Part shown: piece by piece, positions 18,540 to 39,099 of the stretch
How the letters are laid out: each line of letters starts with the position of its first letter
How positions within the stretch are numbered: the first letter of the stretch is position 1
NCBI GenBank assembly: GCA_963668315.1
Contig: OY764216.1
Span: forward strand, 4,992,001-5,056,000
Direction: 5' to 3'
From: Spirochaetia bacterium
GTDB lineage: Bacteria > Spirochaetota > Spirochaetia > DSM-2461
Length of the DNA stretch: 64,000 nt
Program-made: the position numbers and the translations under genes
The notes under the pieces: model-generated
Told to the model about the DNA's origin: nothing
Databases searched by the model: none
What the model saw: the letters and a program-made list of their open reading frames with translations, nothing else

Positions 18540-18542
18540 CAC

Positions 18543-19641: not shown

Positions 19642-19662
19642 GCAACTTTTTTGAAGGATTGA

Positions 19663-20052: not shown

Positions 20053-20137
20053 CAGACAATATATGCTCCGCTTCGCTGCGGTCTTCGACAAATCTATCAC
20101 TGCGTGATAGACTTCATATATCGTCGGAACGTTATAC
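20047..20137 (+). repeat. attC-like site 1 (short type)
   Basis: ATCTAAC...GCTTCGC...ACTTCATATATCGTCGGAACGTTATAC. Confidence 0.85.
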
Positions 20138-20176
20138 ACAATTTCTTTTTTGAAGATTTTTTTGGAGTATTTGTTG

Positions 20177-21094
20177 ATGAATAAATTATGGCTTTTTGTA
20201 TCAATCATGACCGTTTTTTTGTTTTTTTCTTGCTCTTCTACACCCTATTCAGGAATGGAAATCATTTCAGAAAGTGACGGATATAATTATTACATTGAAA
20301 ATAGTGAATCGAACTCTTTGATCATTTATATTGATGGTAGTGGATATCAATCAGTTTTAGGTCAACGAGATGATTCTGAGAAATGGACCACTACCACCTT
20401 ATCCAATCCACTATCACAGCATTTTAGGAAGAGTTATAATATTCTCATCCCTGAGAAGTTAGATTTTTCTCCTGGAGAAATATATCTTGATAATTCTGAA
20501 GTCCTGAGTAAATCAACGGTTCAGGCTCTTGGATTAAGTTATTCCCAGAAAATAGATAACTTTTTAAGTAATCATAATTTTACTGAAATTATTTTAATAG
20601 GCGCATCAGAAGGAGGTGCCCTTTTACCTTATATTTATAACAATCTGTTACATATAGGTGAAATCAATAAACTAGTAATTTGGAGTGGAGGAGGTCTTAG
20701 TCAACTGAAAGAGTTTCAAATCCTAGGTAATTCGTCAGTTTTAATGCCTGATCAATATCGTGATCTTTGCAAGCAAGTTGATGAAATGGCTGAAGCTATC
20801 AACTCAGAACCTGAAGCTATTGATAAATTTTACCTAGGGCATCCATATATTCGTTGGAGTAGTTTTTTTAAATATGAGCCTATAGATTATATTAGGCAAA
20901 TAGATATTCCCATTTTGTTTATTCACGGAGAGATGGATTGGTCAACACCTGTTGAATCAACACGTATTATTGAAGAATCAAATATTTCTGATCAATTTGA
21001 TTTTATTTATTATCCTAAGATGGAACATAGTCCTTCGTCTTTTGCTGAATTGAAAAGAGTTTTAAAAGACATTGAGGAATGGATACTTGGTTGA
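20177..21094 (+). CDS. Cassette 2: alpha/beta hydrolase lipoprotein
   Basis: Lipobox FFSC, GASEGG, HGEMD, H. Start set to the ATG after a GGAG RBS. Confidence 0.8.
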   Translation: MNKLWLFVSIMTVFLFFSCSSTPYSGMEIISESDGYNYYIENSESNSLIIYIDGSGYQSVLGQRDDSEKWTTTTLSNPLSQHFRKSYNILIPEKLDFSPGEIYLDNSEVLSKSTVQALGLSYSQKIDNFLSNHNFTEIILIGASEGGALLPYIYNNLLHIGEINKLVIWSGGGLSQLKEFQILGNSSVLMPDQYRDLCKQVDEMAEAINSEPEAIDKFYLGHPYIRWSSFFKYEPIDYIRQIDIPILFIHGEMDWSTPVESTRIIEESNISDQFDFIYYPKMEHSPSSFAELKRVLKDIEEWILG

Positions 21095-21117
21095 ACACCG
21101 TTCAAAAAAGAAACTGT

Positions 21118-21262
21118 GTATAACAGAGAATATACGGCTCCGCTTCGCTCCGGCCCAAATTGTTTCTTTGACAAATCTCAAAAAAAGTAGTTATACTTTT
21201 TCCGAGATTTATCAACCCCACAAGGGGGCGAAACAACTTCGTATATTCTCGAAACGTTATAG
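21118..21262 (+). repeat. attC-like site 2 (promoter-containing type)
   Basis: GTATAAC-AGAGAATATACG...CGTATATTCTC-GAAAC-GTTATAG, with internal TTGACA-18-TATACT. Confidence 0.88.
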
Positions 21263-21291
21263 GAAATTTACAATATGCGTATAAGGAAAAC

Positions 21292-21606
21292 ATGGTGGAA
21301 TTAACCTCAGAAGAATTCGACAATACATTTACATCCAATTTCAATGAAGTTACTGAAACGGCAGAAAATTTTAATGGCAAAGATTTTGATCAATATGTTA
21401 AGTCGAATTTAATTGATGAACTTGGTGTTATGCAAATTGAATATATCTATGATACTAAAGATGGAAATTGGAGACATGTCATATTCAAAACACAACTGAA
21501 AAACATTAATTATGTGGTTGTCATAGATATAAATAAGAAAACTATTCTCGGGCACCATGTTTTAGATTTAAACGAAAAATATGGATTAAACGCTTTGGGA
21601 TTGTAA
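21292..21606 (+). CDS. Cassette 3: hypothetical protein
   Basis: ORF with AAGGA RBS that fills the cassette. Confidence 0.7.
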   Translation: MVELTSEEFDNTFTSNFNEVTETAENFNGKDFDQYVKSNLIDELGVMQIEYIYDTKDGNWRHVIFKTQLKNINYVVVIDINKKTILGHHVLDLNEKYGLNALGL

Positions 21607-21611
21607 ACTTC

Positions 21612-21757
21612 CTATAACAGCAAATGATGCGGTTACGGCTTTGCCTTCTCCCAAATTGCCTTTGACAAATACAGAAAAAAGTATGTTATACTTTTCCCTG
21701 TATTTATCAACCCCTTCGGGGTACCAGGCAACTTCGCATATTTGCGAAACGTTATGT
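21612..21757 (+). repeat. attC-like site 3
   Basis: CTATAACAGCAAATGATGCGG...ACTTCGCATATTTGCGAAACGTTATGT. Confidence 0.88.
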
Positions 21758-21817
21758 TCAATGCCCATTTTTAAAAGCTTGTTGTAGCCTCGCCCTTCCA
21801 TGGGCTCGGAGAAGATT

Positions 21818-23320
21818 ATGAAGAAACAAATATTTTCATATATAAATCTACTTAAAGAGTATATGATCCAGTGCGAAGGCAAAATAATAATTTCCCCTTA
21901 TCATTCAGATGTAAAAAAAATAAGATCAGTCGTAAAAAATGAAAGTGCTTTATTTAATAATGTTGTGTTTCGATGTTCAGATAGCGTTGAAATAAAAGAG
22001 CAAAATGAAAAAGAGACATTATTGTTTTCAATCATTTCCGAAGCACTACACAAACCCGATGATTATTATGAAAAATACAAACCAGAATTATTCCGAATAA
22101 AAAACAATCTGCAAGAAGTTTTATCAAAGGTTTTTCAAGAATATAAAAAGAATAGATCTTTCTGTAAAATAATAGCTGATTCTATTGGGTACAAGACATA
22201 CTCAATTCCAGAATCCATAGATTCATTTTTAGGCAAGGAACATTCATATATCTTCTTTTATATTTTTTTAAACCATATTTTTATTGATTTTTTGAAAGCG
22301 AATAATTGTTATGATATAGATACATTTTTAGAGATAGAATCCAATAAATGGTATGATTTTCATAGAAAAAAGTTTGAAGGGATAAAAAATCGGAAAAACT
22401 ACGAATATGAAATTTGTTATTATCTCAATTCGCCTATATGCACTTCTGAAAATGGAACAAAATTAGGAATCTTTAAATACTATGATAAGAATATCTCGTT
22501 ACAAACATCTTACGTTAATGATGATGAATTGGGGACATTAACATATGATTTTTCAGAAAAAGATTACTTAAAATATGTTAACACTAAAATTTCATATAAT
22601 GCTAAAATCCCCATAGAAGCTGAAGTCTCAACTTTTGAGGACTTATATAAAGAAGCAGAAGATATCGGTAAGAGGTTATTGACGAATCTACGATTAGCTT
22701 ATGAATTTGAAATTGGTGTATTAACTTTAAAAATCAAATCAAGGGATCAGTTTACTCCAGATATCAGATCTGGGAACAATATTGAATTTAGTAACAAATA
22801 TACAGCATATTTACCGAAAAGGTTTATTTTTTTTACAGATACACCAATAGATATCCAAGAGACTGACTGCTTAAGACTTTTTAAAAGATTGAACAAAGTT
22901 CAGGAAATAGATGATTGGTTAAAAATTGCCTGTAAAAGGTTTAATCTTTCGATAGATAACTATTTTGTTTATAACCATGACAGATTATTGGATATTGCAA
23001 TCGCATTTGAAGCAATTTTTTTAAATGACAATGAATCGACGAAAGAATTAACATATAGGTTAAGTGTCCGTGCAGCTAAGTTTTTAGGTAAAAATAAGAA
23101 TGAAAAAGAGAATATATTTAAAATTGTAAATGATTTATACAAGTATCGATCAAAGATAGCGCATGGTGTAGATATAAACTCTATGAAACCAAAAGATAGA
23201 GATAGAATTAATGAAATAAATATAGAAGCCCCGATTTTACTTAAACTTTCAATTGTTAAGTCGATTTTTATGAAAAGCAATGATTGGAGAAATTATTGGC
23301 AAACGTTAACTTTAAATTAA
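21818..23320 (+). CDS. Cassette 4: HEPN-domain protein (ApeA-like), candidate defence RNase
   Basis: C-terminal LLDIAIAFEAIF...ELTYRLSVRAAKFLG...LYKYRSKIAHG with an RxxxxH motif. Confidence 0.72.
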   Translation: MKKQIFSYINLLKEYMIQCEGKIIISPYHSDVKKIRSVVKNESALFNNVVFRCSDSVEIKEQNEKETLLFSIISEALHKPDDYYEKYKPELFRIKNNLQEVLSKVFQEYKKNRSFCKIIADSIGYKTYSIPESIDSFLGKEHSYIFFYIFLNHIFIDFLKANNCYDIDTFLEIESNKWYDFHRKKFEGIKNRKNYEYEICYYLNSPICTSENGTKLGIFKYYDKNISLQTSYVNDDELGTLTYDFSEKDYLKYVNTKISYNAKIPIEAEVSTFEDLYKEAEDIGKRLLTNLRLAYEFEIGVLTLKIKSRDQFTPDIRSGNNIEFSNKYTAYLPKRFIFFTDTPIDIQETDCLRLFKRLNKVQEIDDWLKIACKRFNLSIDNYFVYNHDRLLDIAIAFEAIFLNDNESTKELTYRLSVRAAKFLGKNKNEKENIFKIVNDLYKYRSKIAHGVDINSMKPKDRDRINEINIEAPILLKLSIVKSIFMKSNDWRNYWQTLTLN

Positions 23321-23397
23321 ACCTGCTACATAATGCCGTCCATGGCATTATGTAGAATTTATACGCACACATTTAAAAATGGGCACTAAACATAACA

Positions 23398-24967
23398 CAT
23401 ATTAGGACCCCATCTGTCAAGGACAAATTTTCCCCTGTTCTATCTAGGTAGAACATTTTTATATGAAGATGAACCGGACCGATAAAGAATGAAGCATTCT
23501 GTCTTGTTTCTCAAACGGGCTGCAGAAAAGATCTGCTCCAAACACACATAGACACTTTAACTCCGTAATTTTACGGCATTATAGAAATACATCCGTACCC
23601 AATCCTGTCATAATCAATGAAAACGGATTTCTTGGGGAATCCAGTTATTTTCGTGATCAGGCTGGTGCAGAATTCTTCCAGACTTTCTCAATCCTGGTTA
23701 TTTAAAACAGGTCGAAGCAGATATCCAATCAGCGAACGCATAATTCTTCTTTCAAATGATAAATACGAATGATAGTCATGCTATAAAAAGCCGTATTTAC
23801 GGTCATTATCTTTTTATGATTATAGTTATACGTTAGGCTTATCTGCTCCACCTGTTATGAACAAAAACGGTCTATATCAAAGGCTTTCCTCCTTTTGAGA
23901 ACATAATATACAGCTCTGGCTAATTTATGGGCCATGATGGAATAGGCTTTCCCGTTTCCAAACTTTTGCACTAATCTCTGATGATATGATTTTATCTCCG
24001 GGCAATAGCGGATGAACATGACGGCCGCTTCGGAGAAAGCCCACTTGAGATTAGCATTGCCGATTTTGGTATTTTTGGATGCATACTGCTTTCCTCCCGA
24101 TTCCCTCTGACACTTGACTACGCGGCAATAGGAAACGAAGTTCTGTACACGAGGAAAACGGTTAATGTCTTCAATTTCATAGAGAATAGTCAGGGCAAGC
24201 ACATCACCTATCCCGGGAATAGATTTCAACAAAGAAAATGCTAGAGGATCAGAATGATTTGCTGCCTTCAAAACACGAGATTCTATCTTCCGGATCTGTT
24301 CGGTTAACGCATCAACGACGGCTATGTCGACTTCCATATTCATTTTGACCGCCGGATCATCAAACCGTTCGAGTAATTCAGTCTTCGAAGCAATCGTAAG
24401 AGAATTGATCCCCTTCTTTATGGTATCGAAATTGTATTGGGTATTGGTATTCTGGATATGAGAAAGAAGATCTGATCTCCTGCGAACAAGATATATTCGC
24501 CGTCTGAAGAGGTCTCGAATAGCTCTGGTTTTCTGTGGGTAGACATAGGCTTGAGGGATCAGGCCACCTTTTAGCAATGCCGCTATCTTCTGGGAATCGA
24601 TTTTATCGTTCTTGGTTTTTCCTCCGCTTATAGCCTTCATGTAGAGGGCGTGGCCAAGGACAAAGGGAATACTGTTTAGCTGGCAGTAATCGGCAATCCA
24701 GTACCATGTGAAAATACACTCGACACAGATGACGATATCATTAAGAAAGGGGGCGATCGCTTGTTGAAGGTGAACCGGATCAGCGATCATGTTTTTATGA
24801 TAGACGATTTCGCCATCCTGGTTCATAATGCAGATATACATCTTTTTCGTGTGGAGATCGATTCCGCAGTAAAAGTTGTGTTGTTGGGTATAAAATTTCA
24901 TAAGGGCTCCTTTGGTTAAGGTTGTTGGAAATTTTAACATAACCACTAGGGGTCCTTATGATTATCA
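23398..24967 (-). mobile_element. IS110/IS1111-family element, copy 1 (1570 bp)
   Basis: Sub-terminal IR AGGACCCC/GGGGTCCT, CA core at both junctions, no TSD, about 460 bp of non-coding sequence downstream of the transposase. Confidence 0.92.
23855..24901 (-). CDS. IS110-family (DEDD) transposase/recombinase
   Basis: GIDLH, VECIF, KNDKIDS, SIPGIG, RESGGK. Start set to MKFYTQ, after an AAGGAG RBS. Confidence 0.93.
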   Translation of the reverse strand: MKFYTQQHNFYCGIDLHTKKMYICIMNQDGEIVYHKNMIADPVHLQQAIAPFLNDIVICVECIFTWYWIADYCQLNSIPFVLGHALYMKAISGGKTKNDKIDSQKIAALLKGGLIPQAYVYPQKTRAIRDLFRRRIYLVRRRSDLLSHIQNTNTQYNFDTIKKGINSLTIASKTELLERFDDPAVKMNMEVDIAVVDALTEQIRKIESRVLKAANHSDPLAFSLLKSIPGIGDVLALTILYEIEDINRFPRVQNFVSYCRVVKCQRESGGKQYASKNTKIGNANLKWAFSEAAVMFIRYCPEIKSYHQRLVQKFGNGKAYSIMAHKLARAVYYVLKRRKAFDIDRFCS

Positions 24968-25139
24968 GCGAATATACGCTGCGGCTTCGCCTTGGCCTTC
25001 GGCAAATAAACCCTTTGAAAATATTCTAAAAAATTATGATATAATTTCCCAGAATATTTTCAAGCCCGCAAGGGGCTGGGTTTACTTCGTATATTCGCGG
25101 AACGTTATAGGAAACATATTTTTGGAGATTATTTCGCAA

Positions 25140-25661
25140 ATGAAGAATATACTTGAAATGATAAAGAAAGATGCACGATTGTCATTCTGGAGCGAAGAAA
25201 AATTGGAACTGGAAGGCTTTGAGAGGATTTCAGCGACATTGACAACAATTCATAGATTCATTCTCAGCCCTCTCATTGCATATGTCTTCATTGCAGGTAT
25301 AACCAACATGTTACTAAATGTCTCATCAGTAGAAACATACATGATTATTCTCAGTTTTGTACTTGCCATATTCGTCTTTTACTTTTATGGCTATAGGTTT
25401 CTATCTGCTAATCATGCTTTTTTCGATAGAAAAAGTCGAATTGTTCTAATTTTTCTCCCATATAAGTATAGAATTATAAGTGTAAATAAAGACAACATTT
25501 ATTCAGTCGATGGTACAACATTTAATCCTATTGATTTCGTTACAATTAGAGTTAGAGAAGGAGACAAAGTAAGAAAATATCATTTTGTCTCTTCATTTAG
25601 ATTTTTCAAAGCATACACGGAGCATCCTATTGTTAAAAATATTAGGGAATACCTTAGATAG
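25140..25661 (+). CDS. Cassette 5: hypothetical membrane protein
   Basis: Two hydrophobic segments. ATG after GGAG at 25124; the ORF-track start at 24912 is read-through across the attC. Confidence 0.7.
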   Translation: MKNILEMIKKDARLSFWSEEKLELEGFERISATLTTIHRFILSPLIAYVFIAGITNMLLNVSSVETYMIILSFVLAIFVFYFYGYRFLSANHAFFDRKSRIVLIFLPYKYRIISVNKDNIYSVDGTTFNPIDFVTIRVREGDKVRKYHFVSSFRFFKAYTEHPIVKNIREYLR

Positions 25662-25694
25662 AACCACGTGCCAAAAAATATGCATCCTATAACA

Positions 25695-27264
25695 CATATT
25701 AGGACCCCATCTGTCAAGGACAAATTTTCCCCTGTTCTATCTAGGTAGAACATTTTTATATGAAGATGAACCGGACCGATAAAGAATGAAGCATTCTGTC
25801 TTGTTTCTCAAACGGGCTGCAGAAAAGATCTGCTCCAAACACACATAGACACTTTAACTCCGTAATTTTACGGCATTATAGAAATACATCCGTACCCAAT
25901 CCTGTCATAATCAATGAAAACGGATTTCTTGGGGAATCCAGTTATTTTCGTGATCAGGCTGGTGCAGAATTCTTCCAGACTTTCTCAATCCTGGTTATTT
26001 AAAACAGGTCGAAGCAGATATCCAATCAGCGAACGCATAATTCTTCTTTCAAATGATAAATACGAATGATAGTCATGCTATAAAAAGCCGTATTTACGGT
26101 CATTATCTTTTTATGATTATAGTTATACGTTAGGCTTATCTGCTCCACCTGTTATGAACAAAAACGGTCTATATCAAAGGCTTTCCTCCTTTTGAGAACA
26201 TAATATACAGCTCTGGCTAATTTATGGGCCATGATGGAATAGGCTTTCCCGTTTCCAAACTTTTGCACTAATCTCTGATGATATGATTTTATCTCCGGGC
26301 AATAGCGGATGAACATGACGGCCGCTTCGGAGAAAGCCCACTTGAGATTAGCATTGCCGATTTTGGTATTTTTGGATGCATACTGCTTTCCTCCCGATTC
26401 CCTCTGACACTTGACTACGCGGCAATAGGAAACGAAGTTCTGTACACGAGGAAAACGGTTAATGTCTTCAATTTCATAGAGAATAGTCAGGGCAAGCACA
26501 TCACCTATCCCGGGAATAGATTTCAACAAAGAAAATGCTAGAGGATCAGAATGATTTGCTGCCTTCAAAACACGAGATTCTATCTTCCGGATCTGTTCGG
26601 TTAACGCATCAACGACGGCTATGTCGACTTCCATATTCATTTTGACCGCCGGATCATCAAACCGTTCGAGTAATTCAGTCTTCGAAGCAATCGTAAGAGA
26701 ATTGATCCCCTTCTTTATGGTATCGAAATTGTATTGGGTATTGGTATTCTGGATATGAGAAAGAAGATCTGATCTCCTGCGAACAAGATATATTCGCCGT
26801 CTGAAGAGGTCTCGAATAGCTCTGGTTTTCTGTGGGTAGACATAGGCTTGAGGGATCAGGCCACCTTTTAGCAATGCCGCTATCTTCTGGGAATCGATTT
26901 TATCGTTCTTGGTTTTTCCTCCGCTTATAGCCTTCATGTAGAGGGCGTGGCCAAGGACAAAGGGAATACTGTTTAGCTGGCAGTAATCGGCAATCCAGTA
27001 CCATGTGAAAATACACTCGACACAGATGACGATATCATTAAGAAAGGGGGCGATCGCTTGTTGAAGGTGAACCGGATCAGCGATCATGTTTTTATGATAG
27101 ACGATTTCGCCATCCTGGTTCATAATGCAGATATACATCTTTTTCGTGTGGAGATCGATTCCGCAGTAAAAGTTGTGTTGTTGGGTATAAAATTTCATAA
27201 GGGCTCCTTTGGTTAAGGTTGTTGGAAATTTTAACATAACCACTAGGGGTCCTTATGATTATCA
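25695..27264 (-). mobile_element. IS110/IS1111-family element, copy 2
   Basis: Same ends and same transposase as copy 1, offset 2297 bp. Confidence 0.92.
26152..27198 (-). CDS. IS110-family transposase
   Basis: Protein identical to copy 1. Confidence 0.93.
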   Translation of the reverse strand: MKFYTQQHNFYCGIDLHTKKMYICIMNQDGEIVYHKNMIADPVHLQQAIAPFLNDIVICVECIFTWYWIADYCQLNSIPFVLGHALYMKAISGGKTKNDKIDSQKIAALLKGGLIPQAYVYPQKTRAIRDLFRRRIYLVRRRSDLLSHIQNTNTQYNFDTIKKGINSLTIASKTELLERFDDPAVKMNMEVDIAVVDALTEQIRKIESRVLKAANHSDPLAFSLLKSIPGIGDVLALTILYEIEDINRFPRVQNFVSYCRVVKCQRESGGKQYASKNTKIGNANLKWAFSEAAVMFIRYCPEIKSYHQRLVQKFGNGKAYSIMAHKLARAVYYVLKRRKAFDIDRFCS

Positions 27265-27436
27265 GCGAATATACGCTGCGGCTTCGCCTTGGCCTTCGGC
27301 AAATAAACCCTTTGAAAATATTCTAAAAAATTATGATATAATTTCCCAGAATATTTTCAAGCCCGCAAGGGGCTGGGTTTACTTCGTATATTCGCGGAAC
27401 GTTATAGGAAACATATTTTTGGAGATTATTTCGCAA

Positions 27437-27958
27437 ATGAAGAATATACTTGAAATGATAAAGAAAGATGCACGATTGTCATTCTGGAGCGAAGAAAAAT
27501 TGGAACTGGAAGGCTTTGAGAGGATTTCAGCGACATTGACAACAATTCATAGATTCATTCTCAGCCCTCTCATTGCATATGTCTTCATTGCAGGTATAAC
27601 CAACATGTTACTAAATGTCTCATCAGTAGAAACATACATGATTATTCTCAGTTTTGTACTTGCCATATTCGTCTTTTACTTTTATGGCTATAGGTTTCTA
27701 TCTGCTAATCATGCTTTTTTCGATAGAAAAAGTCGAATTGTTCTAATTTTTCTCCCATATAAGTATAGAATTATAAGTGTAAATAAAGACAACATTTATT
27801 CAGTCGATGGTACAACATTTAATCCTATTGATTTCGTTACAATTAGAGTTAGAGAAGGAGACAAAGTAAGAAAATATCATTTTGTCTCTTCATTTAGATT
27901 TTTCAAAGCATACACGGAGCATCCTATTGTTAAAAATATTAGGGAATACCTTAGATAG
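27437..27958 (+). CDS. Cassette 6: duplicate of the cassette 5 membrane protein
   Basis: Translation identical to 25140-25661. Confidence 0.7.
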   Translation: MKNILEMIKKDARLSFWSEEKLELEGFERISATLTTIHRFILSPLIAYVFIAGITNMLLNVSSVETYMIILSFVLAIFVFYFYGYRFLSANHAFFDRKSRIVLIFLPYKYRIISVNKDNIYSVDGTTFNPIDFVTIRVREGDKVRKYHFVSSFRFFKAYTEHPIVKNIREYLR

Positions 27959-27991
27959 AACCACGTGCCAAAAAATATGCATCCTATAACA

Positions 27992-29561
27992 CATATTAGG
28001 ACCCCATCTGTCAAGGACAAATTTTCCCCTGTTCTATCTAGGTAGAACATTTTTATATGAAGATGAACCGGACCGATAAAGAATGAAGCATTCTGTCTTG
28101 TTTCTCAAACGGGCTGCAGAAAAGATCTGCTCCAAACACACATAGACACTTTAACTCCGTAATTTTACGGCATTATAGAAATACATCCGTACCCAATCCT
28201 GTCATAATCAATGAAAACGGATTTCTTGGGGAATCCAGTTATTTTCGTGATCAGGCTGGTGCAGAATTCTTCCAGACTTTCTCAATCCTGGTTATTTAAA
28301 ACAGGTCGAAGCAGATATCCAATCAGCGAACGCATAATTCTTCTTTCAAATGATAAATACGAATGATAGTCATGCTATAAAAAGCCGTATTTACGGTCAT
28401 TATCTTTTTATGATTATAGTTATACGTTAGGCTTATCTGCTCCACCTGTTATGAACAAAAACGGTCTATATCAAAGGCTTTCCTCCTTTTGAGAACATAA
28501 TATACAGCTCTGGCTAATTTATGGGCCATGATGGAATAGGCTTTCCCGTTTCCAAACTTTTGCACTAATCTCTGATGATATGATTTTATCTCCGGGCAAT
28601 AGCGGATGAACATGACGGCCGCTTCGGAGAAAGCCCACTTGAGATTAGCATTGCCGATTTTGGTATTTTTGGATGCATACTGCTTTCCTCCCGATTCCCT
28701 CTGACACTTGACTACGCGGCAATAGGAAACGAAGTTCTGTACACGAGGAAAACGGTTAATGTCTTCAATTTCATAGAGAATAGTCAGGGCAAGCACATCA
28801 CCTATCCCGGGAATAGATTTCAACAAAGAAAATGCTAGAGGATCAGAATGATTTGCTGCCTTCAAAACACGAGATTCTATCTTCCGGATCTGTTCGGTTA
28901 ACGCATCAACGACGGCTATGTCGACTTCCATATTCATTTTGACCGCCGGATCATCAAACCGTTCGAGTAATTCAGTCTTCGAAGCAATCGTAAGAGAATT
29001 GATCCCCTTCTTTATGGTATCGAAATTGTATTGGGTATTGGTATTCTGGATATGAGAAAGAAGATCTGATCTCCTGCGAACAAGATATATTCGCCGTCTG
29101 AAGAGGTCTCGAATAGCTCTGGTTTTCTGTGGGTAGACATAGGCTTGAGGGATCAGGCCACCTTTTAGCAATGCCGCTATCTTCTGGGAATCGATTTTAT
29201 CGTTCTTGGTTTTTCCTCCGCTTATAGCCTTCATGTAGAGGGCGTGGCCAAGGACAAAGGGAATACTGTTTAGCTGGCAGTAATCGGCAATCCAGTACCA
29301 TGTGAAAATACACTCGACACAGATGACGATATCATTAAGAAAGGGGGCGATCGCTTGTTGAAGGTGAACCGGATCAGCGATCATGTTTTTATGATAGACG
29401 ATTTCGCCATCCTGGTTCATAATGCAGATATACATCTTTTTCGTGTGGAGATCGATTCCGCAGTAAAAGTTGTGTTGTTGGGTATAAAATTTCATAAGGG
29501 CTCCTTTGGTTAAGGTTGTTGGAAATTTTAACATAACCACTAGGGGTCCTTATGATTATCA
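27992..29561 (-). mobile_element. IS110/IS1111-family element, copy 3
   Basis: Same ends and same transposase as copy 1. Confidence 0.92.
28449..29495 (-). CDS. IS110-family transposase
   Basis: Protein identical to copy 1. Confidence 0.93.
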   Translation of the reverse strand: MKFYTQQHNFYCGIDLHTKKMYICIMNQDGEIVYHKNMIADPVHLQQAIAPFLNDIVICVECIFTWYWIADYCQLNSIPFVLGHALYMKAISGGKTKNDKIDSQKIAALLKGGLIPQAYVYPQKTRAIRDLFRRRIYLVRRRSDLLSHIQNTNTQYNFDTIKKGINSLTIASKTELLERFDDPAVKMNMEVDIAVVDALTEQIRKIESRVLKAANHSDPLAFSLLKSIPGIGDVLALTILYEIEDINRFPRVQNFVSYCRVVKCQRESGGKQYASKNTKIGNANLKWAFSEAAVMFIRYCPEIKSYHQRLVQKFGNGKAYSIMAHKLARAVYYVLKRRKAFDIDRFCS

Positions 29562-30303: not shown

Positions 30304-30315
30304 AAAGAACACTAC

Positions 30316-30459
30316 ACCTAACAGCAAATGATGCGGTTCCGCTCCGCTTCACCCAAATTGCCTTTGACAAATACCCGTTCAATTATGATATAATTGAACA
30401 GCCATTTATCAACCCCTATTGGGGTACAGGCAACTTCGCATATTTGCGGAACGTTACCC
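30316..30459 (+). repeat. attC-like site 7
   Basis: ACCTAACAGCAAATGATGCGG...ACTTCGCATATTTGCGGAACGTTACCC. Confidence 0.88.
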
Positions 30460-30523
30460 ATTATTATTTGGCTTATAATATTTTTTTTCATCATTCGCCA
30501 TCCTTGGCTCATTAGGGGAAATT

Positions 30524-30994
30524 TTGGATTTATCTGAATATAGTGTTAAAGAATTACTGATACTAATCTCTGATATCATGAAAGAGCTGATCTCAAGAAG
30601 AATTATTAGAACATTTAATAATCCTGTTGGTGATTATACGGAGTGGCTTGTTTCATCACGGTTAAATTATACGCTTGAAAATAATTCAAAAGCTGGTTTC
30701 GATGCAACTTCCAGTACCGGACAAAGGGTTCAGATAAAGGGAAGAAGAGTCACTCCATGGAATAAATCTCACCAGTTAAGTGCAATCAGAAATCTTGATT
30801 CAAAGGATTTTGATACACTAGCAGCTGTTATTTTTGATGAAGATTACAACGTAATTGAAGCGAAAATGATTCCTCAGGAAATCATTCATGAGTATGCAAA
30901 TTACCGAGAGCATGTTAATGCACATATTTTAATCTTACAAGGTGATATTCTCAACGACAATCGAGTAAAAGATATCAAAAAGGATTTGATATAG
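30524..30994 (+). CDS. Cassette 8: small PD-(D/E)XK-like nuclease-fold protein
   Basis: NNPVGDYTEWLV...GFDAT...RVQIKGRR gives an E...D...QxK pattern. Confidence 0.6.
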   Translation: MDLSEYSVKELLILISDIMKELISRRIIRTFNNPVGDYTEWLVSSRLNYTLENNSKAGFDATSSTGQRVQIKGRRVTPWNKSHQLSAIRNLDSKDFDTLAAVIFDEDYNVIEAKMIPQEIIHEYANYREHVNAHILILQGDILNDNRVKDIKKDLI

Positions 30995-31057
30995 ATCGTG
31001 TTTAAAAGTACATCCTTGTACTTTTAAAGAACCTATACGCTGTCGCCAAATAACAAC

Positions 31058-31201
31058 GGGTAACAGCGAATTATGCGGTTTCGCTTCGCTCCACCAAAAT
31101 TGCCTTTGACAAATACCCGTTCAATTATGATATAATTGAACAGCCATTTATCAACCCCGGTGGGGTACCAGGCAACTTCGCATATTCGCGAAACGTTATA
31201 T
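31058..31201 (+). repeat. attC-like site 8
   Basis: GGGTAACAGCGAATTATGCGG...ACTTCGCATATTCGCGAAACGTTATAT. Confidence 0.88.
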
Positions 31202-31215
31202 TCAATAGCCAATTC

Positions 31216-32031
31216 ATGAAAATCTTTTTTAAATTTGGAGAAAATCCTTTGAAAGATTATGGGGAATCAAAACAATTACAGTTTCTCAACAAAACTTACA
31301 GTTTTATAAAAGACTGTATTGGAGAATCTCCAGCAGATGTTTTTATTCTAGACAATAGAAAGACATCTGAAAAATTGTTCCTTAAAATCAGCTCTAAAGA
31401 TTTTTCCTTCACTACATATTCTGTTGAACGGGAAATGCTTGTCTTGAAATGGCTAGCAGACAAAACGGATGTACCAACTGTTGTAGACTATTTTGAAAAT
31501 GAGGATTATCAATTTCTTCTGATGAAAAGCATTATTGGATTGCCAATTCTGGACACCGCACCTTCTGGAAATACTATCGTTGATTCTTTTGTCAATGGAA
31601 TAAAGACCTTTCAATCCATCAATGTTGATGATTGCCCTTTTGATAGTTCTATGAAAAAACGATTAAAGGAACTGAAATACCTGGTTAATAAAAATTTGGC
31701 AGCATTTGATGACTTTTATGAAAGTGAGTTGCCATTTGATTCCCCTGAGGATTTAATCAGTTATTTAGAAAATAATATGCATCCAGAGGAAATTGTTTTT
31801 TCCCATGGAGATTTTCAAGAAAGTAATATTTTCATCTCTAAGAAATTAGGTTTCATAGATTGGGGGCGTGGGGGAAAGGCTGATAAATGGTGTGATATTG
31901 CTCATGCTTATCAAAACATTAAAGAGCAATTGGAAGATCAGAAATATATAAACCGATTCTTTGAAAAACTAGAATTAGAACCTGATTGGGACAAGATAAA
32001 TTTCCATTTATGGCTCGATGAATTGTTCTGA
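31216..32031 (+). CDS. Cassette 9: aminoglycoside 3'-phosphotransferase, APH(3')-like
   Basis: GESPADVF, LFLKIS, YSVERE, CPFD, FSHGDFQESNIF, GFIDWGRGGKADKWCDIA and C-terminal LDELF, as in APH(3')-III-type enzymes. The true start may be TTG at 31249. Confidence 0.85.
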   Translation: MKIFFKFGENPLKDYGESKQLQFLNKTYSFIKDCIGESPADVFILDNRKTSEKLFLKISSKDFSFTTYSVEREMLVLKWLADKTDVPTVVDYFENEDYQFLLMKSIIGLPILDTAPSGNTIVDSFVNGIKTFQSINVDDCPFDSSMKKRLKELKYLVNKNLAAFDDFYESELPFDSPEDLISYLENNMHPEEIVFSHGDFQESNIFISKKLGFIDWGRGGKADKWCDIAHAYQNIKEQLEDQKYINRFFEKLELEPDWDKINFHLWLDELF

Positions 32032-32055
32032 CACCGTTCATGAATTGGCTACTGA

Positions 32056-32201
32056 ATATAACAGCCAATATACGGCTCCGCTTCGCTCCGGCCCAAATTA
32101 ACCCTTTGACCAATTCTGAAAAAAGTATGATATACTTTTCCCGAAATTGCTCAACCCCACAAGGGGCCGGGTTTACTTCGTATATTGGCGAAACGTTAGC
32201 A
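32056..32201 (+). repeat. attC-like site 9
   Basis: ATATAACAGCCAATATACG...CGTATATTGGCGAAACGTTAGCA. Confidence 0.88.
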
Positions 32202-32269
32202 AAATTTTTGTTTTCGGCTTCGTTATCGGTTTTCTGACCATCCGTGGTCAGAAAAAATGAAGGAGTAAC

Positions 32270-33055
32270 ATGGAAATTCAACATCTTGAGAAATACTATA
32301 ATAATATTGATGAGGATGGAAGGCTCCTTTCAAAATATGGTTCAGTCGAATTTTTAACCACTATGAAATATATTCAAAAATATCTTACGCAGGATATGAA
32401 GATTTTGGATATTGGGGCTGGAACAGGTATTTACAGCCTGGCTTTAGCTGATAAGTGTCATCATGTTGATGCCGTAGAGCTGATACAGAAAAATATTGAC
32501 ATATTCAAATTAAAAATAGAAAAGCATAAGAATATTACAGTGCAAAAAGGAAACGCTCTAGATTTGAGTTTTCTGGAAGATAATTTCTATGATATTACGT
32601 TGTTATTTGGCCCTATGTACCATCTTTATACAGAAGAGCATAAACTCAAAGCTCTTTCAGAAGCAATAAGGGTAACAAAACCAAAAGGCTATATTCTAAT
32701 AGCATACTGTATGTCGGATGCAACTATTTTAAATTATGGGTTTGTAAAGAAAAATATTGTGGATCTTATTGAAAAAGAGATGTTAGATACGGAGGAATTT
32801 AAGCCCCGGTCAGAACCGATAGATCTATTTGAACTTCATAGAAAGGAAGATATAGACCGCCTAAATAATAAATTTAATGTAAAAAGATTAAACTATGTAG
32901 CTACAGATGGTTTTACAAATCATTTTAGAGAAACCGTGAATAATATGAGTGACAAAGAATTTGAGATTTATATGAAATACCATTTTTTCACGTGTGAACG
33001 AGAAGATATGCAAGGAATAACTCATCATAGTCTGGATATATTACAAAAACAATAA
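32270..33055 (+). CDS. Cassette 10: class I SAM-dependent methyltransferase
   Basis: ILDIGAGTG, GNALDL, GPMYHL. Confidence 0.88.
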   Translation: MEIQHLEKYYNNIDEDGRLLSKYGSVEFLTTMKYIQKYLTQDMKILDIGAGTGIYSLALADKCHHVDAVELIQKNIDIFKLKIEKHKNITVQKGNALDLSFLEDNFYDITLLFGPMYHLYTEEHKLKALSEAIRVTKPKGYILIAYCMSDATILNYGFVKKNIVDLIEKEMLDTEEFKPRSEPIDLFELHRKEDIDRLNNKFNVKRLNYVATDGFTNHFRETVNNMSDKEFEIYMKYHFFTCEREDMQGITHHSLDILQKQ

Positions 33056-33125
33056 AAGAATGAGGAAATACTATACATCCCTGTATAGTATTATCTTCTA
33101 TCAGAAAATCCGAAAACAAAACTTC

Positions 33126-33326
33126 AGCTAACAGCGTTTATATGCTCCGCTACGCTCCGGGCTTCGCCAAATTTAAATCAAAAAGAATTATTTTAAAAAA
33201 AGAACAACAATTACGCTATAATAGATTCTATACAACAAGGATTTGCTACGGATTTGCCTATGTCACATTTCTTGTTTTCACAAGAAATTCGCCAATTACG
33301 GCAAACCGCAGAAATCGTCGTTCTAA
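33126..33326 (+). repeat. attC-like site 10 (long type, ends at the inner GTT)
   Basis: Left arm matches site 6; the sequence diverges right after the inner CGTT at 33319-33322. Confidence 0.75.
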
Positions 33327-33346
33327 AGACAAAGAAGGGGGGGGGA

Positions 33347-33871
33347 ATGAGACTAGTTATACGATTAGCCACAAAAGAAGATTCATCAAGTATTCTTAGA
33401 GTAATTAATCAATCATATAATCCATATAAAAACTTAATACCAGCTAATTGTGGATTTGTAACTTCTATAGAAGAAATAATCAAAATTATGAAAGATGAGA
33501 GCTCCTCATGTTGGGTAGCTGAAAATAATGATAGTGTTATTGGTGTTGCTACTGGAATTACAATTGCTCCAAGAGCATATCATCTTAAGCTTTTATTTAT
33601 CGCAGAACATGCGCAACGCAAAGGTATAGCTTCGAACTTATTATCAACTTATGAAAATTCAGGCAAAAAAAAAGGGTATAAATTATTAACTACCAATTAT
33701 CAGAAATGGGCTCCATGGTCAAGAAACTTCTATCTTAAGCAAGGATATAAGGAATATATTGAGGGGGATGAATTAGATTTTCCAGATTTGCATGAAACGA
33801 TTTCTTTTTATAGAAGGATTGGTAAGTTAAATAATGATCGAAAATGTTTTATATGGAAAAAGACATGCTAA
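33347..33871 (+). CDS. Cassette 11: GNAT-family acetyltransferase
   Basis: IRLAT, AQRKGIASNLL acetyl-CoA motif A, FYLKQGY. Confidence 0.85.
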   Translation: MRLVIRLATKEDSSSILRVINQSYNPYKNLIPANCGFVTSIEEIIKIMKDESSSCWVAENNDSVIGVATGITIAPRAYHLKLLFIAEHAQRKGIASNLLSTYENSGKKKGYKLLTTNYQKWAPWSRNFYLKQGYKEYIEGDELDFPDLHETISFYRRIGKLNNDRKCFIWKKTC

Positions 33872-33944
33872 GGTTACGGGTAAGGAGCACTAAATGCCAT
33901 CCGTGGCATTTACTGGACATACAGACAATAGGAATGGGCACTAA

Positions 33945-34090
33945 ACATAACAGCAAATGATGCGGTTATGGCTTTGCCTTCACCCAAATTGCCTTTGACA
34001 AATCCAAGAAAAAGCACGTATACTTTTCCTTAGATTTATCAACCCCTAAAGGGGTACCAGGCAACTTCGCATATTTGCAAAACGTTAAAT
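33945..34090 (+). repeat. attC-like site 11
   Basis: ACATAACAGCAAATGATGCGG...ACTTCGCATATTTGCAAAACGTTAAAT. Confidence 0.88.
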
Positions 34091-34093
34091 GAA

Positions 34094-34585
34094 ATGTTTT
34101 GGGAGAAGATTTTTTTACAAGGAATTATTTTGAAACAACCAAGAATTGTAACTGTTTGCGGAGCTTTAGTTATTAACAATAATCAAGTTCTCATAATTCA
34201 GGAAGCTAATAAAAAGGCTTTTGGGAAATTTAATATTCCTGGAGGTCATGTTGATTTAGATGAAGATCTGAAGGAAACGGCTATCCGAGAAGTTAAAGAA
34301 GAGACGGGAATTCCCATCATTGTTGAAGATTTTCTTGGAGTCTATACTCATCAAGCACAAGATAAATCAACAATCATCAAAATAATATTTGTTGGAAAAC
34401 CCTGTGATTTTGAAATCAATTTTCCTAAGGATGAGATACTAAACGCTACTTGGATGAACATTGATGATTTTCTGAAAATCGAAGCTGATAAGTTACGTTC
34501 ACAAGATTTATTTTCAATAATTACAGATTATAGAAACAAGAATCAATGTAATTTATCATTAGTGAAAGATATTGTTAGAGTATAA
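34094..34585 (+). CDS. Cassette 12: NUDIX hydrolase
   Basis: Nudix box GGHVDLDEDLKETAIREVKEETG. The true start may be TTG near 34130. Confidence 0.9.
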   Translation: MFWEKIFLQGIILKQPRIVTVCGALVINNNQVLIIQEANKKAFGKFNIPGGHVDLDEDLKETAIREVKEETGIPIIVEDFLGVYTHQAQDKSTIIKIIFVGKPCDFEINFPKDEILNATWMNIDDFLKIEADKLRSQDLFSIITDYRNKNQCNLSLVKDIVRV

Positions 34586-34617
34586 TTTTATTCTGACCCA
34601 TTCTCCCAAAACACTTC

Positions 34618-34761
34618 ATCTAACAGCAAATGATGCGGTTACGCTTCGCTTCACCCAAATTGCCTTTGACAAATCCAGAAAAAAGTATGATATACTTTTC
34701 CCTGTATTTATCAACCCCTGCGGGGTACAAGGCAACTTCATATATTCGCGAAACGTTAAAT
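34618..34761 (+). repeat. attC-like site 12
   Basis: ATCTAACAGCAAATGATGCGG...ACTTCATATATTCGCGAAACGTTAAAT. Confidence 0.88.
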
Positions 34762-34818
34762 ATAATTCAGGTTAGATGGATACTTGATTCAGCCATCCGT
34801 GGCCTCGAAGGAGAATGC

Positions 34819-35648
34819 ATGAGCAAAGATCACACTCCTATTTTAAGAAATTACAGGAATAATTGGTACAATGAAGATTATCTCTTGATTTAATTGCAAA
34901 AAGAATTGATCTTTATTCATGTGTAGACATTTTAGATGTTGGCTGTGGTGAATTTCATTGGACCCTATTACTTGCAAAATACTTTCCAGATAATTTTCAT
35001 TTAGTAGGTATTGATTTGAATGAGATAACTTTCTCAAAACTCACAGATATTAAAGAATTATATCCCAATTGGAATTTTATAAAAGGTGATATTAAGAGAT
35101 TGCCTTTTGAGGATAATTCATTTGATCTTGTTACATGTCAGACATTACTTATCCATCTAGACTCTCCGATTTTAGCTGTAAAAGAGATGTTCAGAGTACT
35201 AAAGCCAGGCGGAAAAGTACTCATTTCAGAACCTAATAATTTTTCTCAATCGACATTTAGAAATAGCTGGAATATAGATCATAGTACCCAGAAAAGATTG
35301 GATAGTATAACTGAAAAATTGAAAAGTGATGAGAAGAAAAAGAAAAATGGCCATGGTGATAATTCAATAGGAGAAATTGTTCCCATTCATCTCAGAAAAA
35401 ACGGTTTCTCAGAAATTAGAACCTATATGAATGATAAGGTTACCTCTCTTGTTCCTCCATATTCAACAATAGAAGAACAACAAAAAATTGATATGCTAAC
35501 TCATTTCTCAGAAAACTATCCATTTGAAATGTCAGAACAAGATAAAGAAGAATTAAATGATGAAATCCAAATGATCAGTCGAGAAGAGTATATTGCATAT
35601 AATCCAACAATGTTATTCCTGACTATGGGAGTCAAACCTCAGATATAA
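34819..35648 (+). pseudogene. Cassette 13: frameshifted SAM-dependent methyltransferase
   Basis: The frame from ATG 34819 (after AAGGAG) stops at 34893. The other frame continues ...ILDVGCGEFHW...GDIKRLPFEDNSFDLV. Consistent with a +2 (CT) duplication near 34883. Confidence 0.75.
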
Positions 35649-35700
35649 AAGTACGTCCTTGTACTTTTATTCAATCTTTTCCGTAATAACCTGGAACTAC

Positions 35701-35893
35701 ATTTAACAGCGAATGATATGCTCCACTTCGTTTCGGGCTTCGCCAAATTTCTATCAAAAAGAATTAGTTCCGAAATAGAGAATTTGTATGCTACAATGAA
35801 CAACAATATAACCAAGATTTGCTACTGTCACATTTCTTGTTTTCACAAGAAATCCGCCAGCTTCACGGTCTGCAGCAGAAATCGACGTTATCT
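35701..35893 (+). repeat. attC-like site 13 (long type, ends at the inner GTT)
   Basis: ATTTAACAGCGAATGATATG...AATATAAC...GAAATCGACGTTATCT. Confidence 0.75.
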
Positions 35894-35923
35894 TGACTAA
35901 ATATTTTTGAGGAGAAAATAAAA

Positions 35924-36319
35924 ATGTTAGGATTAACTTTATATATAGAAAATTCTAATGAAGCTTTAGATTTTTATTGTAATGCCTTCAAATTGGAATT
36001 GGGATATAATGTTAAAAATGATAATGGAACATATTTACATGCTGAACTTTTTAGACAAGGTTTTGGTGGTTTTGCAATAAGTGAATCAGATGATAAAATA
36101 ATTCAAAATGCAATGCTTGCAGCTAAACAGCCAACAATAAGTTTAGGGATGAATTTTGAAAGCAATGATGAATTAGATCATGCTTATGAAGTACTAGGAG
36201 AAGAAGGTCATATCCTACGTCCAATTGGTTCTCTTCCTTGGTCTCCATATTCAGCAGATGTTGTAGATAAGTTTGGGGTTTGTTGGTATTTATATGTAAC
36301 TCAGCATAAACCTGAATAA
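35924..36319 (+). CDS. Cassette 14: VOC/PhnB-family protein
   Basis: EALDFYCNAF, HAEL, PWSPYSADVVDKFGVCW. Confidence 0.85.
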   Translation: MLGLTLYIENSNEALDFYCNAFKLELGYNVKNDNGTYLHAELFRQGFGGFAISESDDKIIQNAMLAAKQPTISLGMNFESNDELDHAYEVLGEEGHILRPIGSLPWSPYSADVVDKFGVCWYLYVTQHKPE

Positions 36320-36382
36320 TATTTGTTTCTTAACCATTCGGCTCAATGCCTCATTAAAGGCTTTTTCAGGGCGTTTACTGCC

Positions 36383-36501
36383 TTATAATAGCAAGTGAAT
36401 ATTTGATCCGAAATGTTCAATCCTTCAACTGTAGTCGTTCGGCATCCGTGCCTCACTACTTGGTAAATCCCGACGCATACTACTTATAACAGACGATATA
36501 T
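36383..36501 (+). repeat. Degenerate attC-like site 14
   Basis: TTATAATAGC...AGACGATATAT with the core mutated GTT to GAT. The downstream GATATATGTAATGATTTTTTG still complements the end of cassette 15. Confidence 0.55.
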
Positions 36502-36536
36502 GTAATGATTTTTTGAGATTTATACAGGAGGGACAT

Positions 36537-36905
36537 ATGCCTGATTTTGATACAATTGACGATTATATCAATTCCCAACCAGAGGGTACAAAAGAAGCTC
36601 TATTTAAATTGAAGGATTGTATACTCAAAGCTGCTCCTGATGCAAAAGAATTATTCAATTATAGTATTCCTGCATTTGCTTTAGTAGAAAATGGGAAAAG
36701 AGAACAACAGATAATGATCGCAGGATACAAAAAGCATGTTGGGTTTTATCCACATCCAACAACTATTGAAAAATTCGCTAATAAATTAACTATATATAAA
36801 CAAGGTAAAGGATCTATTCAATTTCCAATAAACAAACCAATTCCTTGTGAACTGGTAATTGAAATGGTTAAGTATAGAAGAATGCGTGTTAAGGCTGGTA
36901 AATAA
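36537..36905 (+). CDS. Cassette 15: DUF1801/YdhG-like protein
   Basis: TIDDYI, NYSIPAF, AGYKKHVGFYP, KGSIQFP. ATG after GGAGG. Confidence 0.82.
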   Translation: MPDFDTIDDYINSQPEGTKEALFKLKDCILKAAPDAKELFNYSIPAFALVENGKREQQIMIAGYKKHVGFYPHPTTIEKFANKLTIYKQGKGSIQFPINKPIPCELVIEMVKYRRMRVKAGK

Positions 36906-36933
36906 ATGACGCAAAAAGTCACTACATATAACA

Positions 36934-38503
36934 CATATTAGGACCCCATCTGTCAAGGACAAATTTTCCCCTGTTCTATCTAGGTAGAACATTTTTATAT
37001 GAAGATGAACCGGACCGATAAAGAATGAAGCATTCTGTCTTGTTTCTCAAACGGGCTGCAGAAAAGATCTGCTCCAAACACACATAGACACTTTAACTCC
37101 GTAATTTTACGGCATTATAGAAATACATCCGTACCCAATCCTGTCATAATCAATGAAAACGGATTTCTTGGGGAATCCAGTTATTTTCGTGATCAGGCTG
37201 GTGCAGAATTCTTCCAGACTTTCTCAATCCTGGTTATTTAAAACAGGTCGAAGCAGATATCCAATCAGCGAACGCATAATTCTTCTTTCAAATGATAAAT
37301 ACGAATGATAGTCATGCTATAAAAAGCCGTATTTACGGTCATTATCTTTTTATGATTATAGTTATACGTTAGGCTTATCTGCTCCACCTGTTATGAACAA
37401 AAACGGTCTATATCAAAGGCTTTCCTCCTTTTGAGAACATAATATACAGCTCTGGCTAATTTATGGGCCATGATGGAATAGGCTTTCCCGTTTCCAAACT
37501 TTTGCACTAATCTCTGATGATATGATTTTATCTCCGGGCAATAGCGGATGAACATGACGGCCGCTTCGGAGAAAGCCCACTTGAGATTAGCATTGCCGAT
37601 TTTGGTATTTTTGGATGCATACTGCTTTCCTCCCGATTCCCTCTGACACTTGACTACGCGGCAATAGGAAACGAAGTTCTGTACACGAGGAAAACGGTTA
37701 ATGTCTTCAATTTCATAGAGAATAGTCAGGGCAAGCACATCACCTATCCCGGGAATAGATTTCAACAAAGAAAATGCTAGAGGATCAGAATGATTTGCTG
37801 CCTTCAAAACACGAGATTCTATCTTCCGGATCTGTTCGGTTAACGCATCAACGACGGCTATGTCGACTTCCATATTCATTTTGACCGCCGGATCATCAAA
37901 CCGTTCGAGTAATTCAGTCTTCGAAGCAATCGTAAGAGAATTGATCCCCTTCTTTATGGTATCGAAATTGTATTGGGTATTGGTATTCTGGATATGAGAA
38001 AGAAGATCTGATCTCCTGCGAACAAGATATATTCGCCGTCTGAAGAGGTCTCGAATAGCTCTGGTTTTCTGTGGGTAGACATAGGCTTGAGGGATCAGGC
38101 CACCTTTTAGCAATGCCGCTATCTTCTGGGAATCGATTTTATCGTTCTTGGTTTTTCCTCCGCTTATAGCCTTCATGTAGAGGGCGTGGCCAAGGACAAA
38201 GGGAATACTGTTTAGCTGGCAGTAATCGGCAATCCAGTACCATGTGAAAATACACTCGACACAGATGACGATATCATTAAGAAAGGGGGCGATCGCTTGT
38301 TGAAGGTGAACCGGATCAGCGATCATGTTTTTATGATAGACGATTTCGCCATCCTGGTTCATAATGCAGATATACATCTTTTTCGTGTGGAGATCGATTC
38401 CGCAGTAAAAGTTGTGTTGTTGGGTATAAAATTTCATAAGGGCTCCTTTGGTTAAGGTTGTTGGAAATTTTAACATAACCACTAGGGGTCCTTATGATTA
38501 TCA
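36934..38503 (-). mobile_element. IS110/IS1111-family element, copy 4
   Basis: Same ends and same transposase as copy 1, with independent flanks. Confidence 0.92.
37391..38437 (-). CDS. IS110-family transposase
   Basis: Protein identical to copy 1. Confidence 0.93.
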   Translation of the reverse strand: MKFYTQQHNFYCGIDLHTKKMYICIMNQDGEIVYHKNMIADPVHLQQAIAPFLNDIVICVECIFTWYWIADYCQLNSIPFVLGHALYMKAISGGKTKNDKIDSQKIAALLKGGLIPQAYVYPQKTRAIRDLFRRRIYLVRRRSDLLSHIQNTNTQYNFDTIKKGINSLTIASKTELLERFDDPAVKMNMEVDIAVVDALTEQIRKIESRVLKAANHSDPLAFSLLKSIPGIGDVLALTILYEIEDINRFPRVQNFVSYCRVVKCQRESGGKQYASKNTKIGNANLKWAFSEAAVMFIRYCPEIKSYHQRLVQKFGNGKAYSIMAHKLARAVYYVLKRRKAFDIDRFCS

Positions 38504-38651
38504 GCGAATATGCGGTTCCGCTGCGCTTCACCAAAATTGCCCGTTGGGCAACTTCACCTATTCGCGAAACGTTATCGGCAATAAGCGCCAAAGCATTTAT
38601 TATTCAAAGGAAAATCCGGCGTTCTGCCGGATAAAATGGAGGAAATTAAAA

Positions 38652-39071: not shown

Positions 39072-39099
39072 TGTAAGTCGCAAGAATTTTTGGGGAAAA

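Follow-up and report, generated by a model that had tools for sequence, protein, structure and literature searches.

A spirochaete cassette array of integron kind, with attC-like sites predicted to branch and a recombinase without the I2 insert

In the integron literature, the IntI-specific I2 insert and single-strand recombination of cassettes go together, and intermediates are lacking (PMC7790495, PMC4792948). A stretch of 64,000 nucleotides from a Spirochaetia bacterium (assembly GCA_963668315.1, contig OY764216.1, positions 4,992,001 to 5,056,000; hereafter the window) carries a cassette array with attC-like sites beside a gene for a recombinase that lacks I2, and thus raises the question of how folded cassette sites would be used without that insert. 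An initial annotation proposed that the substrate is the folded bottom strand, and that a branched junction with a GC-GNA-GC mini-hairpin replaces the extrahelical bases read by IntI. Our analysis supports the first proposal and does not bear out the second as a general rule. On balance, we favour a reading in which these are the attC-like sites of an integron-type array, whose bottom strand would fold into a Xer/dif-like 11-6-11 substrate for the I2-less recombinase, the GNA side arm helping this one strand to fold and not itself being the element that the enzyme reads.

Recombinase, primary site and cassettes

18731..19531, minus strand: tyrosine recombinase of 266 aa, pointing away from the array, catalytic R127, K152, H216, R219, H242 and Y251 intact, no I2 insert
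19619..19646, plus strand: candidate attI, 11-6-11 layout AATTCGCATAA GATACG TTAGATGCAAC, crossover G^TT at 19635/19636
19636..39582, plus strand: array of 16 co-oriented, AT-rich cassettes separated by attC-like sites

The enzyme has the complete R-K-H-R-H-Y set of a tyrosine recombinase, all six residues being invariant in an alignment of 24 homologues. The I2 insert is absent: 28 residues span the region that takes 71 in VchIntIA, and the R-to-H spacing is 89, compared with 131 in five true IntI. Its TIGR02249 score of 183.5 lies below the cut-off of 265, and its best hidden Markov model match, NF040815, gives 202.6 bits (cut-off 220). Integrase detection that relies on the IntI-specific domain would not call these enzymes. 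The predicted fold is nearest to VchIntIA (2a3v, the best fold match) and XerA. A close homologue is labelled Spirochaetales, and homologues with E <= 1e-45 are present in 96 of the 401 Spirochaetota genomes searched, a count of homologues and not of arrays. The integrases of five related spirochaete loci (L114, L129, L131, L134 and L137) lie in reading frames of 367-413 codons, which suggests an N-terminal extension absent from the window enzyme.

The cassettes have ends that jointly rebuild one site. When 13 of them were closed into circles, the bases after GTTA matched the reverse complement of the cassette's own end in 65 of 78 comparisons; permuted starts and ends gave 34.1 matches, and none of 100000 permutations reached 65. 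Because the cassette starts match the reverse complement of their own ends, the crossover is fixed at G^TT. The attI candidate, which adjoins the integrase gene and has the same crossover, shares a 9-bp match with the end of the first cassette and is a single copy in the genome at <=7 mismatches. Its 11-6-11 architecture is that of Xer/dif sites (PMC5357621), and its location is not the terminus, the skew maximum being at ~3.58 Mb and the site at 5.01 Mb. Similar 11-6-11 sites, with unrelated spacers, occur in the window and in seven related arrays (L015, L018, L114, L129, L131, L134 and L137); the attI of L016 and L065 fits this layout less well, and none was found at L026 when the related arrays were inspected.

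The position of attI also bears on the identity of the enzyme. The genome holds eight further tyrosine-recombinase matches, including a second homologue at 4.64 Mb, and the CTX phage employs host Xer proteins on folded DNA; host XerC/XerD or that homologue might thus act on the folded sites, in the style of integrative mobile elements exploiting Xer (IMEX). We regard this as very improbable, since attI lies ~90 bp from the start of this recombinase gene and 1.4 Mb from the GC-skew terminus, and the layout of gene, attI and array recurs in several phyla.

The cassette products include glyoxalases, methyltransferases, GNAT, NUDIX, DUF6998, DUF1801 and DUF3788 proteins and an APH(3') family kinase. 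The last, an aminoglycoside phosphotransferase encoded by the cassette at 31216-32031, scores 208 bits against a cut-off of 205.

The attC-like sites and their folded strand

All sites are on the plus strand.

20050..20134: site 1 (TAAC..GTTA), two side hairpins, heptamer at 20070
21121..21259: site 2; TAAC 21121-21124, A 21125, stem 21126-21136, side arm 21137-21156 (TCC-GC-TTC-GC-TCC), AAAT 21157-21160, variable part, ACTT 21236-21239, stem 21240-21250, GAAAC 21251-21255, then GTTA
21615..21754: site 3, extra G in stem, terminal hairpin GGC-TTT-GCC
23393..25107: site 4, split by an IS1111-type insertion sequence (IS) at 23396-24967 (both CA cores counted)
25690..27404: site 5, duplicate of site 4, IS copy 25693-27264, heptamer 27281
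27987..29815: site 6, IS copy 27990-29561, 259-nt hairpin, two GNA side arms
30319..30456: site 7
31061..31198: site 8, extra T in stem
32059..32198: site 9
33129..33172: site 10, has left arm and side arms, lacks the right arm
33948..34087: site 11
34621..34758: site 12
35704..35748: site 13, left arm carries the compensatory AC-TTC-GT, no right arm
36487..36502: remnant of a site, consisting of TAAC and the left stem
36929..38574: last site, IS copy 36932-38503, heptamer GCTGCGC at 38520

Twelve sites are complete, two lack the right arm (33129, 35704) and one is a remnant (36487). The heptamer that drew attention to them is GCTNCGC on the top strand, which occurs 35 times in the window (16.2 expected; 0 of 100 shuffles reached 35); within 20065-38526, 18 matches are on the top strand and one on the bottom. 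All 13 heptamers listed initially are found at the coordinates given for them, with all four bases at N, a compensatory ACTTCGT and two GCTTTGC exceptions, and a fourteenth at 27281, in the duplicated cassette, is to be added. On the folding strand, 11 of these 14 positions read GC-GNA-GC and the rest two GCAAAGC and one ACGAAGT. The heptamers do lie in the left arm as described; their position there is not a single fixed one, the offset from the T of TAAC, or of the TATC that takes its place at the IS junctions, being 20-23 nt.

The loop of 1 versus 5 nt between the TAAC/GTTA box and the stem, described previously, is found in all 12 complete sites, the longer side being GAAAC in seven, GGAAC in four and AAAAC in one. 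ACTT, which had been placed opposite the branch, is likewise conserved in 12 of 12, and is not unpaired: it pairs with the AAAT that follows the side arm. In all nine non-redundant window sites the third of these pairs, at arm position 10, is a top-strand A·C and hence a bottom-strand G·T. Followed along its short strand, the folded site has a right arm of 11 nt, a spacer of 6 nt and a left arm of again 11 nt, 7 nt ahead of the side insert and AAAT behind it. The side insert, built of TNC units, thus falls between left-arm positions 7 and 8; the long strand has four surplus spacer nucleotides. As this geometry equals that of the 11-6-11 attI, ACTT is not an unpaired loop, and on the predicted fold its pairing with AAAT completes a Xer/dif-like site matching attI. 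The right arm has the mirror-image wobble (A·C/G·T at position 11) in 11 of 13 window circles; the corresponding 61 of 69 circles in relatives is an inflated count, because the site filter rewarded those two bases.

This is not the grammar of classical attC sites, R''-5-L''(8, extra base)...L'(7)-5/6-R', in which extrahelical bases are obligatory. The loop is 1 versus 5, and an extra base occurs in 18 of 65 sites of the larger set described below, about where the first classical extrahelical base sits. In the window, an extra base is present in the left strand of the 11-bp stem at 21615, 30319, 31061 and 33948, and by eye at 34621 and 35704, so that the sites are not free of extrahelical bases. 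By the tests of I2 and attC grammar, the array, of integron kind as it is, is not a member of the classical integrons.

Strand preference was analysed in 71 non-redundant sites, 65 from ten spirochaete arrays (the window included) and six from an Ignavibacteriota array; three candidates proved false and were left out, six sites were entered by their coordinates, and copies with 90% or more likeness were counted as one. Watson-Crick pairing in the stem is partly given by construction and the type of mismatch is not. Across stem positions 2-12 of the 65 spirochaete sites, most columns show three or four pair types; a mismatch is a G·T of the bottom strand 31 times, a G·T of the top strand never, and of some other kind 11 times. 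Where three pairs close a triloop, the top strand reads TNC rather than GNA (8 vs 0 in the window, 71 vs 7 in relatives; 11.7 vs 8.5 in a shuffled control), and the bottom strand has the lower minimum free energy (MFE) in 55 of 65 sites, under a nearest-neighbour model without a bonus for GNA or sheared G·A pairs. In site 2, for example, the energies are -32.4 (bottom) and -28.5 kcal/mol (top). Preferential bottom-strand folding is thus found by computation, and together with the G^TT crossover the wobbles and triloops indicate that the folded bottom strand is very probably the substrate.

A contrary idea is an ordinary duplex-by-duplex exchange of Xer type, with hairpins that are incidental or serve functions at the RNA level. 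The recombinase is Xer-like in length, attI is 11-6-11 and its spacer in the window, GATACG, resembles the GAAACG that precedes the attC crossover, and the sigma70-like promoter found in 8 of 13 sites examined would speak for transcription-related selection. In a duplex, however, the left arm would be 4 nt out of register, and the spacers of other attI sites are unlike those of their attC sites. The transcribed top strand has A·C mismatches, its TNCG is flanked by C...C and gives no UNCG tetraloop, and RNA mini-hairpins are far less stable (melting temperature 39 vs 76.5 C for the eight-mer; PMC13037366). A search of the attC-like sites against Rfam gave no family matches. We therefore consider this explanation highly unlikely.

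The branch in the left arm

The branch was described as leaving a stem of approximately 11 bp. In the 65 spirochaete sites it has a fixed place within the arm that the recombinase would bind on the left, directly following position 12. At position 13 no more than 2 of 65 sites keep a Watson-Crick pair; pairing is taken up again beyond the insert, where the third pair is a bottom-strand G·T in 44 sites, Watson-Crick in 19 and a top-strand G·T in one. The rejoin point comes from a best-score search that misplaces it in some long sites; by this measure the insert has 14-123 nt, and the terminal loop also varies widely. G12 is invariant (65/65), and C-TNC-G follows it in 43 of 65. L129 and L131 have a spacer surplus of 2 nt, not 4 nt.

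Beside the junction, the bases are laid out as a closing pair, a T(N)C facing a T(N)C, and then a stem. Of the 65 sites, 52 have this internal loop, against a mean of 3.2 and a maximum of 8 over 300 shuffles, and none has its opposite-strand version. The tip of the branch is variable. In L016 the arm runs on into long stems with different loops, and in many cases the junction becomes four-way through a second GNA hairpin. By these counts the better-conserved motif is the GNA/G(N)A internal loop beside the junction, not the terminal triloop. By analogy with (GGA)2, in which sheared G·A pairs flank intercalated bases (PMC11014236), we infer that the bottom-strand GNA/G(N)A forms sheared G·A pairs around intercalated bases. 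GAA is the commonest triloop (53/79), and it is the most stable in vitro, mini-hairpins being formed by GNA loops only (PMC13037366). Tandem mini-hairpins bind the single-strand-binding protein SSB poorly (PMC13037366), and attC hairpins are opened by SSB (PMC5737091).

These data allow the replacement of extrahelical bases by the branch to be weighed. The extrahelical bases of classical attC sites sit on the same arm as the branch. The spirochaete enzymes might read the branch, with its sheared G·A pairs, in their stead, the folded bottom strand again being the substrate and the left-arm monomer being silenced. The common end of the stem after position 12, the invariant G12 with its C-TNC-G, and the extra base in 18 sites near the first classical extrahelical position would all fit such a role. 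Branches close to this place are also seen in L065, an Ignavibacteriota array, where they lie one position later, and in L027, a Firmicutes array, where two of the five sites shown have a TNC/TNC loop. Against it, five I2-less arrays outside the spirochaetes (Flavobacteriaceae, phages and a metagenome contig; R-H spacing of the integrases 84-90) have an unbroken left arm in 16 of 20 sites, 15 of these 16 keeping the G·T at position 15. The integrase tree groups the enzyme of the branched array L026 with that of the unbranched L168 (96/91), and branched-array enzymes form no supported clade, the backbone being unresolved. Of five triloops in the branched L065 array none is GNA, and the window enzyme has no insert that could read a branch. 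Among 28 classical attC sites beside true IntI, GNA terminal loops also occur, six on the bottom strand and none on the top. The terminal loop of attCaadA7 is GAA. Swapping the 3-nt terminal loop of that site between strands left recombination unchanged (PMC6393395). Reading of the branch is thus possible, less likely than a folding aid, and we regard it as doubtful.

Several observations count against the folding-aid reading that we prefer. A mere folding aid need not require the fixed branch position and the invariant G12. The top strand also forms the stem, with a mean pair probability of 0.75 (bottom, 0.83), and its spacer loop is purine-rich (221/302 bases), so that stacking within this loop would benefit that strand. 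Of the nine L134 sites, seven have their lower MFE on the top strand and eight have a Watson-Crick third pair; in the window, the recombinogenic fold is not the MFE structure at 21615, 30319, 31061 and 34621. Moreover, since the sites are kin, the counts overstate their independence.

According to the folding-aid reading, the bottom strand, exposed as the lagging-strand template, would fold into a dif-like duplex mimic with the help of the G·A motifs. On single-stranded bottom DNA, the GNA units would form sheared G·A pairs (a triloop cap and a GNA/G(N)A zipper) that are stable on this strand only, fold early and resist SSB, and the left-arm halves would stack across the three- or four-way junction. 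Next, the right-arm monomer would cleave AA^C and swap a single strand with double-stranded attI, leaving a junction for replication to resolve, as in attC x attI recombination and the CTX phage. A second exchange would be blocked by the bulged, non-homologous spacer, perhaps with help from the branch. All the enzymatic steps are predictions. A precedent is XerC, which recombines folded single-stranded CTX DNA with unequal central regions without I2 (PMC4246890, PMC4792948). From GC skew, both arrays of the genome (n=2) appear to have the bottom strand as lagging-strand template, an orientation in which classical arrays had a median of 15 cassettes (PMC5371416).

Related systems and neighbouring features

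Classical sedentary chromosomal integrons share with this system a divergent tyrosine recombinase, a primary site, co-oriented cassettes, AAC/GTT cores, the G^TT crossover, the bottom-strand folding bias, attC-targeting IS1111 elements and GNA terminal loops. The differences here are the lack of I2 (R-H spacing 84-95 vs 131), the 11-6-11 geometry, a spacer loop of 1 versus 5 in place of 5 versus 5/6, extrahelical bases that are not obligatory, G·T wobbles placed symmetrically at position 10 of both arms, a left arm that branches and 12-bp complementarity of the cassette ends. The CTX phage attP(+), recombined by XerC/XerD at dif, is similar in that a folded single strand mimics an 11-6-11 Xer site without I2, with central regions of unequal length (12 versus 5-7 nt), exchange of a single strand and resolution by replication, features predicted here (PMC4246890, PMC4792948). 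The present system differs in having a dedicated single recombinase and its own attI, an array of many cassettes that lies off the terminus, and arms that branch. In single-recombinase Xer modules (archaeal XerA/dif, XerS/difSL, XerH/difH), the gene likewise adjoins an 11-6-11 site, and NF040815 is the best match of our enzyme; here, however, the site lies off the terminus and is followed by a cassette array with hairpin sites.

The d(GCGNAGC) mini-hairpins and the (GGA)2 guanine-zipper have the same triloop and sheared G·A/intercalated-base patterns as are predicted here on the bottom strand (PMC13037366, PMC11014236); in the literature consulted, they are named from origins of phages and plasmids, from the N4 promoter and from satellite DNA, whereas here the setting would be recombination sites. 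The DUF1874 motif (Weinberg 2017) is also multistem, lies in consecutive intergenic regions and was proposed as an unusual attC; our sites have no Rfam match, and could be remote relatives of it. An Rfam DUF805 motif directly follows an I2-less attC-like site in another array (L047, 15753-15819) and may be a cassette-borne element. No description of I2-less cassette arrays or of GNA motifs in attC was found in the literature, a search that covered few subscription journals.

Four identical IS1111-type copies in the window are all inserted at the same CA in TAAC-AG, parting TAAC from the remainder of the site, and all five copies in the genome are in attC-like sites. With an IS110-family transposase (NF033542, 200 bits vs cut-off 140), sub-terminal inverted repeats, a downstream non-coding region and a fixed position in attC, the element has the features of the IS1111-attC group, an assignment by features and not by phylogeny; elements of this type target one end of attC sites (PMC11187229). 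Its non-coding region (23396-23854, minus strand) contains TTCGCTG and, 35 nt on, ATAAC, which match the attC target sides around the CA core, a layout as expected of seekRNA/bridge-RNA guides. The IS and cassette unit of 2297 bp at 23392-27985 is a tandem duplicate, 100% identical. The fifth copy lies in a second array of the genome (3440200-3444500, minus strand), which has five similar sites and no recombinase adjacent within the stretch inspected; one of its cassette proteins begins like the window methyltransferase at 32270, and a neighbouring open reading frame looks like a transposase.

The variable part of the commonest site type contains TTGACA-like and TATAAT-like boxes 18-19 nt apart, facing the next cassette and often with TG before the second box (21168-21197, 21662, 25015, 30364, 31106, 32106, 33995 and 34666); each attC of this type may carry a built-in promoter. 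A long site type (29652-29770, 33228-33330, 35800-35895) has an inner AAC...GTT hairpin with a 3-versus-3 loop, and both sites lacking a right arm end at about its inner GTT, perhaps through a deletion or through recombination at the inner site. Around the array lie the following features:

18370..18540, plus strand: tRNA-Arg(CCT) and tRNA-Asp(GTC), directly past the recombinase stop codon
18600-18640: TNC-rich stretch (CTCACTCCGCTTCTGCGG...GCCTTCGGC) that separates the terminator of tRNA-Asp from the stop codon of the recombinase, like the side-arm motifs, without an attC core
39936-42908, minus strand: large repeat protein after the array, Listeria-Bacteroides repeats, 228-bp period
62815-62914: yjdF riboswitch ahead of a DUF2992 gene

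Because cassette architecture and strong signs of bottom-strand folding coexist here with an enzyme without I2, a single enzyme and a few defined sites suffice to ask whether I2 and single-strand cassette recombination must go together, and the natural branched and unbranched site variants are ready controls for what marks the strand. Cassette pools such as this one, with its APH(3')-family gene, may be overlooked, and the sites would show non-canonical G·A DNA motifs put to use by nature in recombination. There is also a modest chance that the I2-less, Xer-sized recombinase of spirochaetes recognises a branched single-stranded DNA junction of sheared G·A motifs in its binding arm, so that DNA, and not a protein insert, would give strand choice and block the second exchange. 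If true, this would be a living alternative solution, or an intermediate, for the chicken-and-egg problem of I2 and attC.

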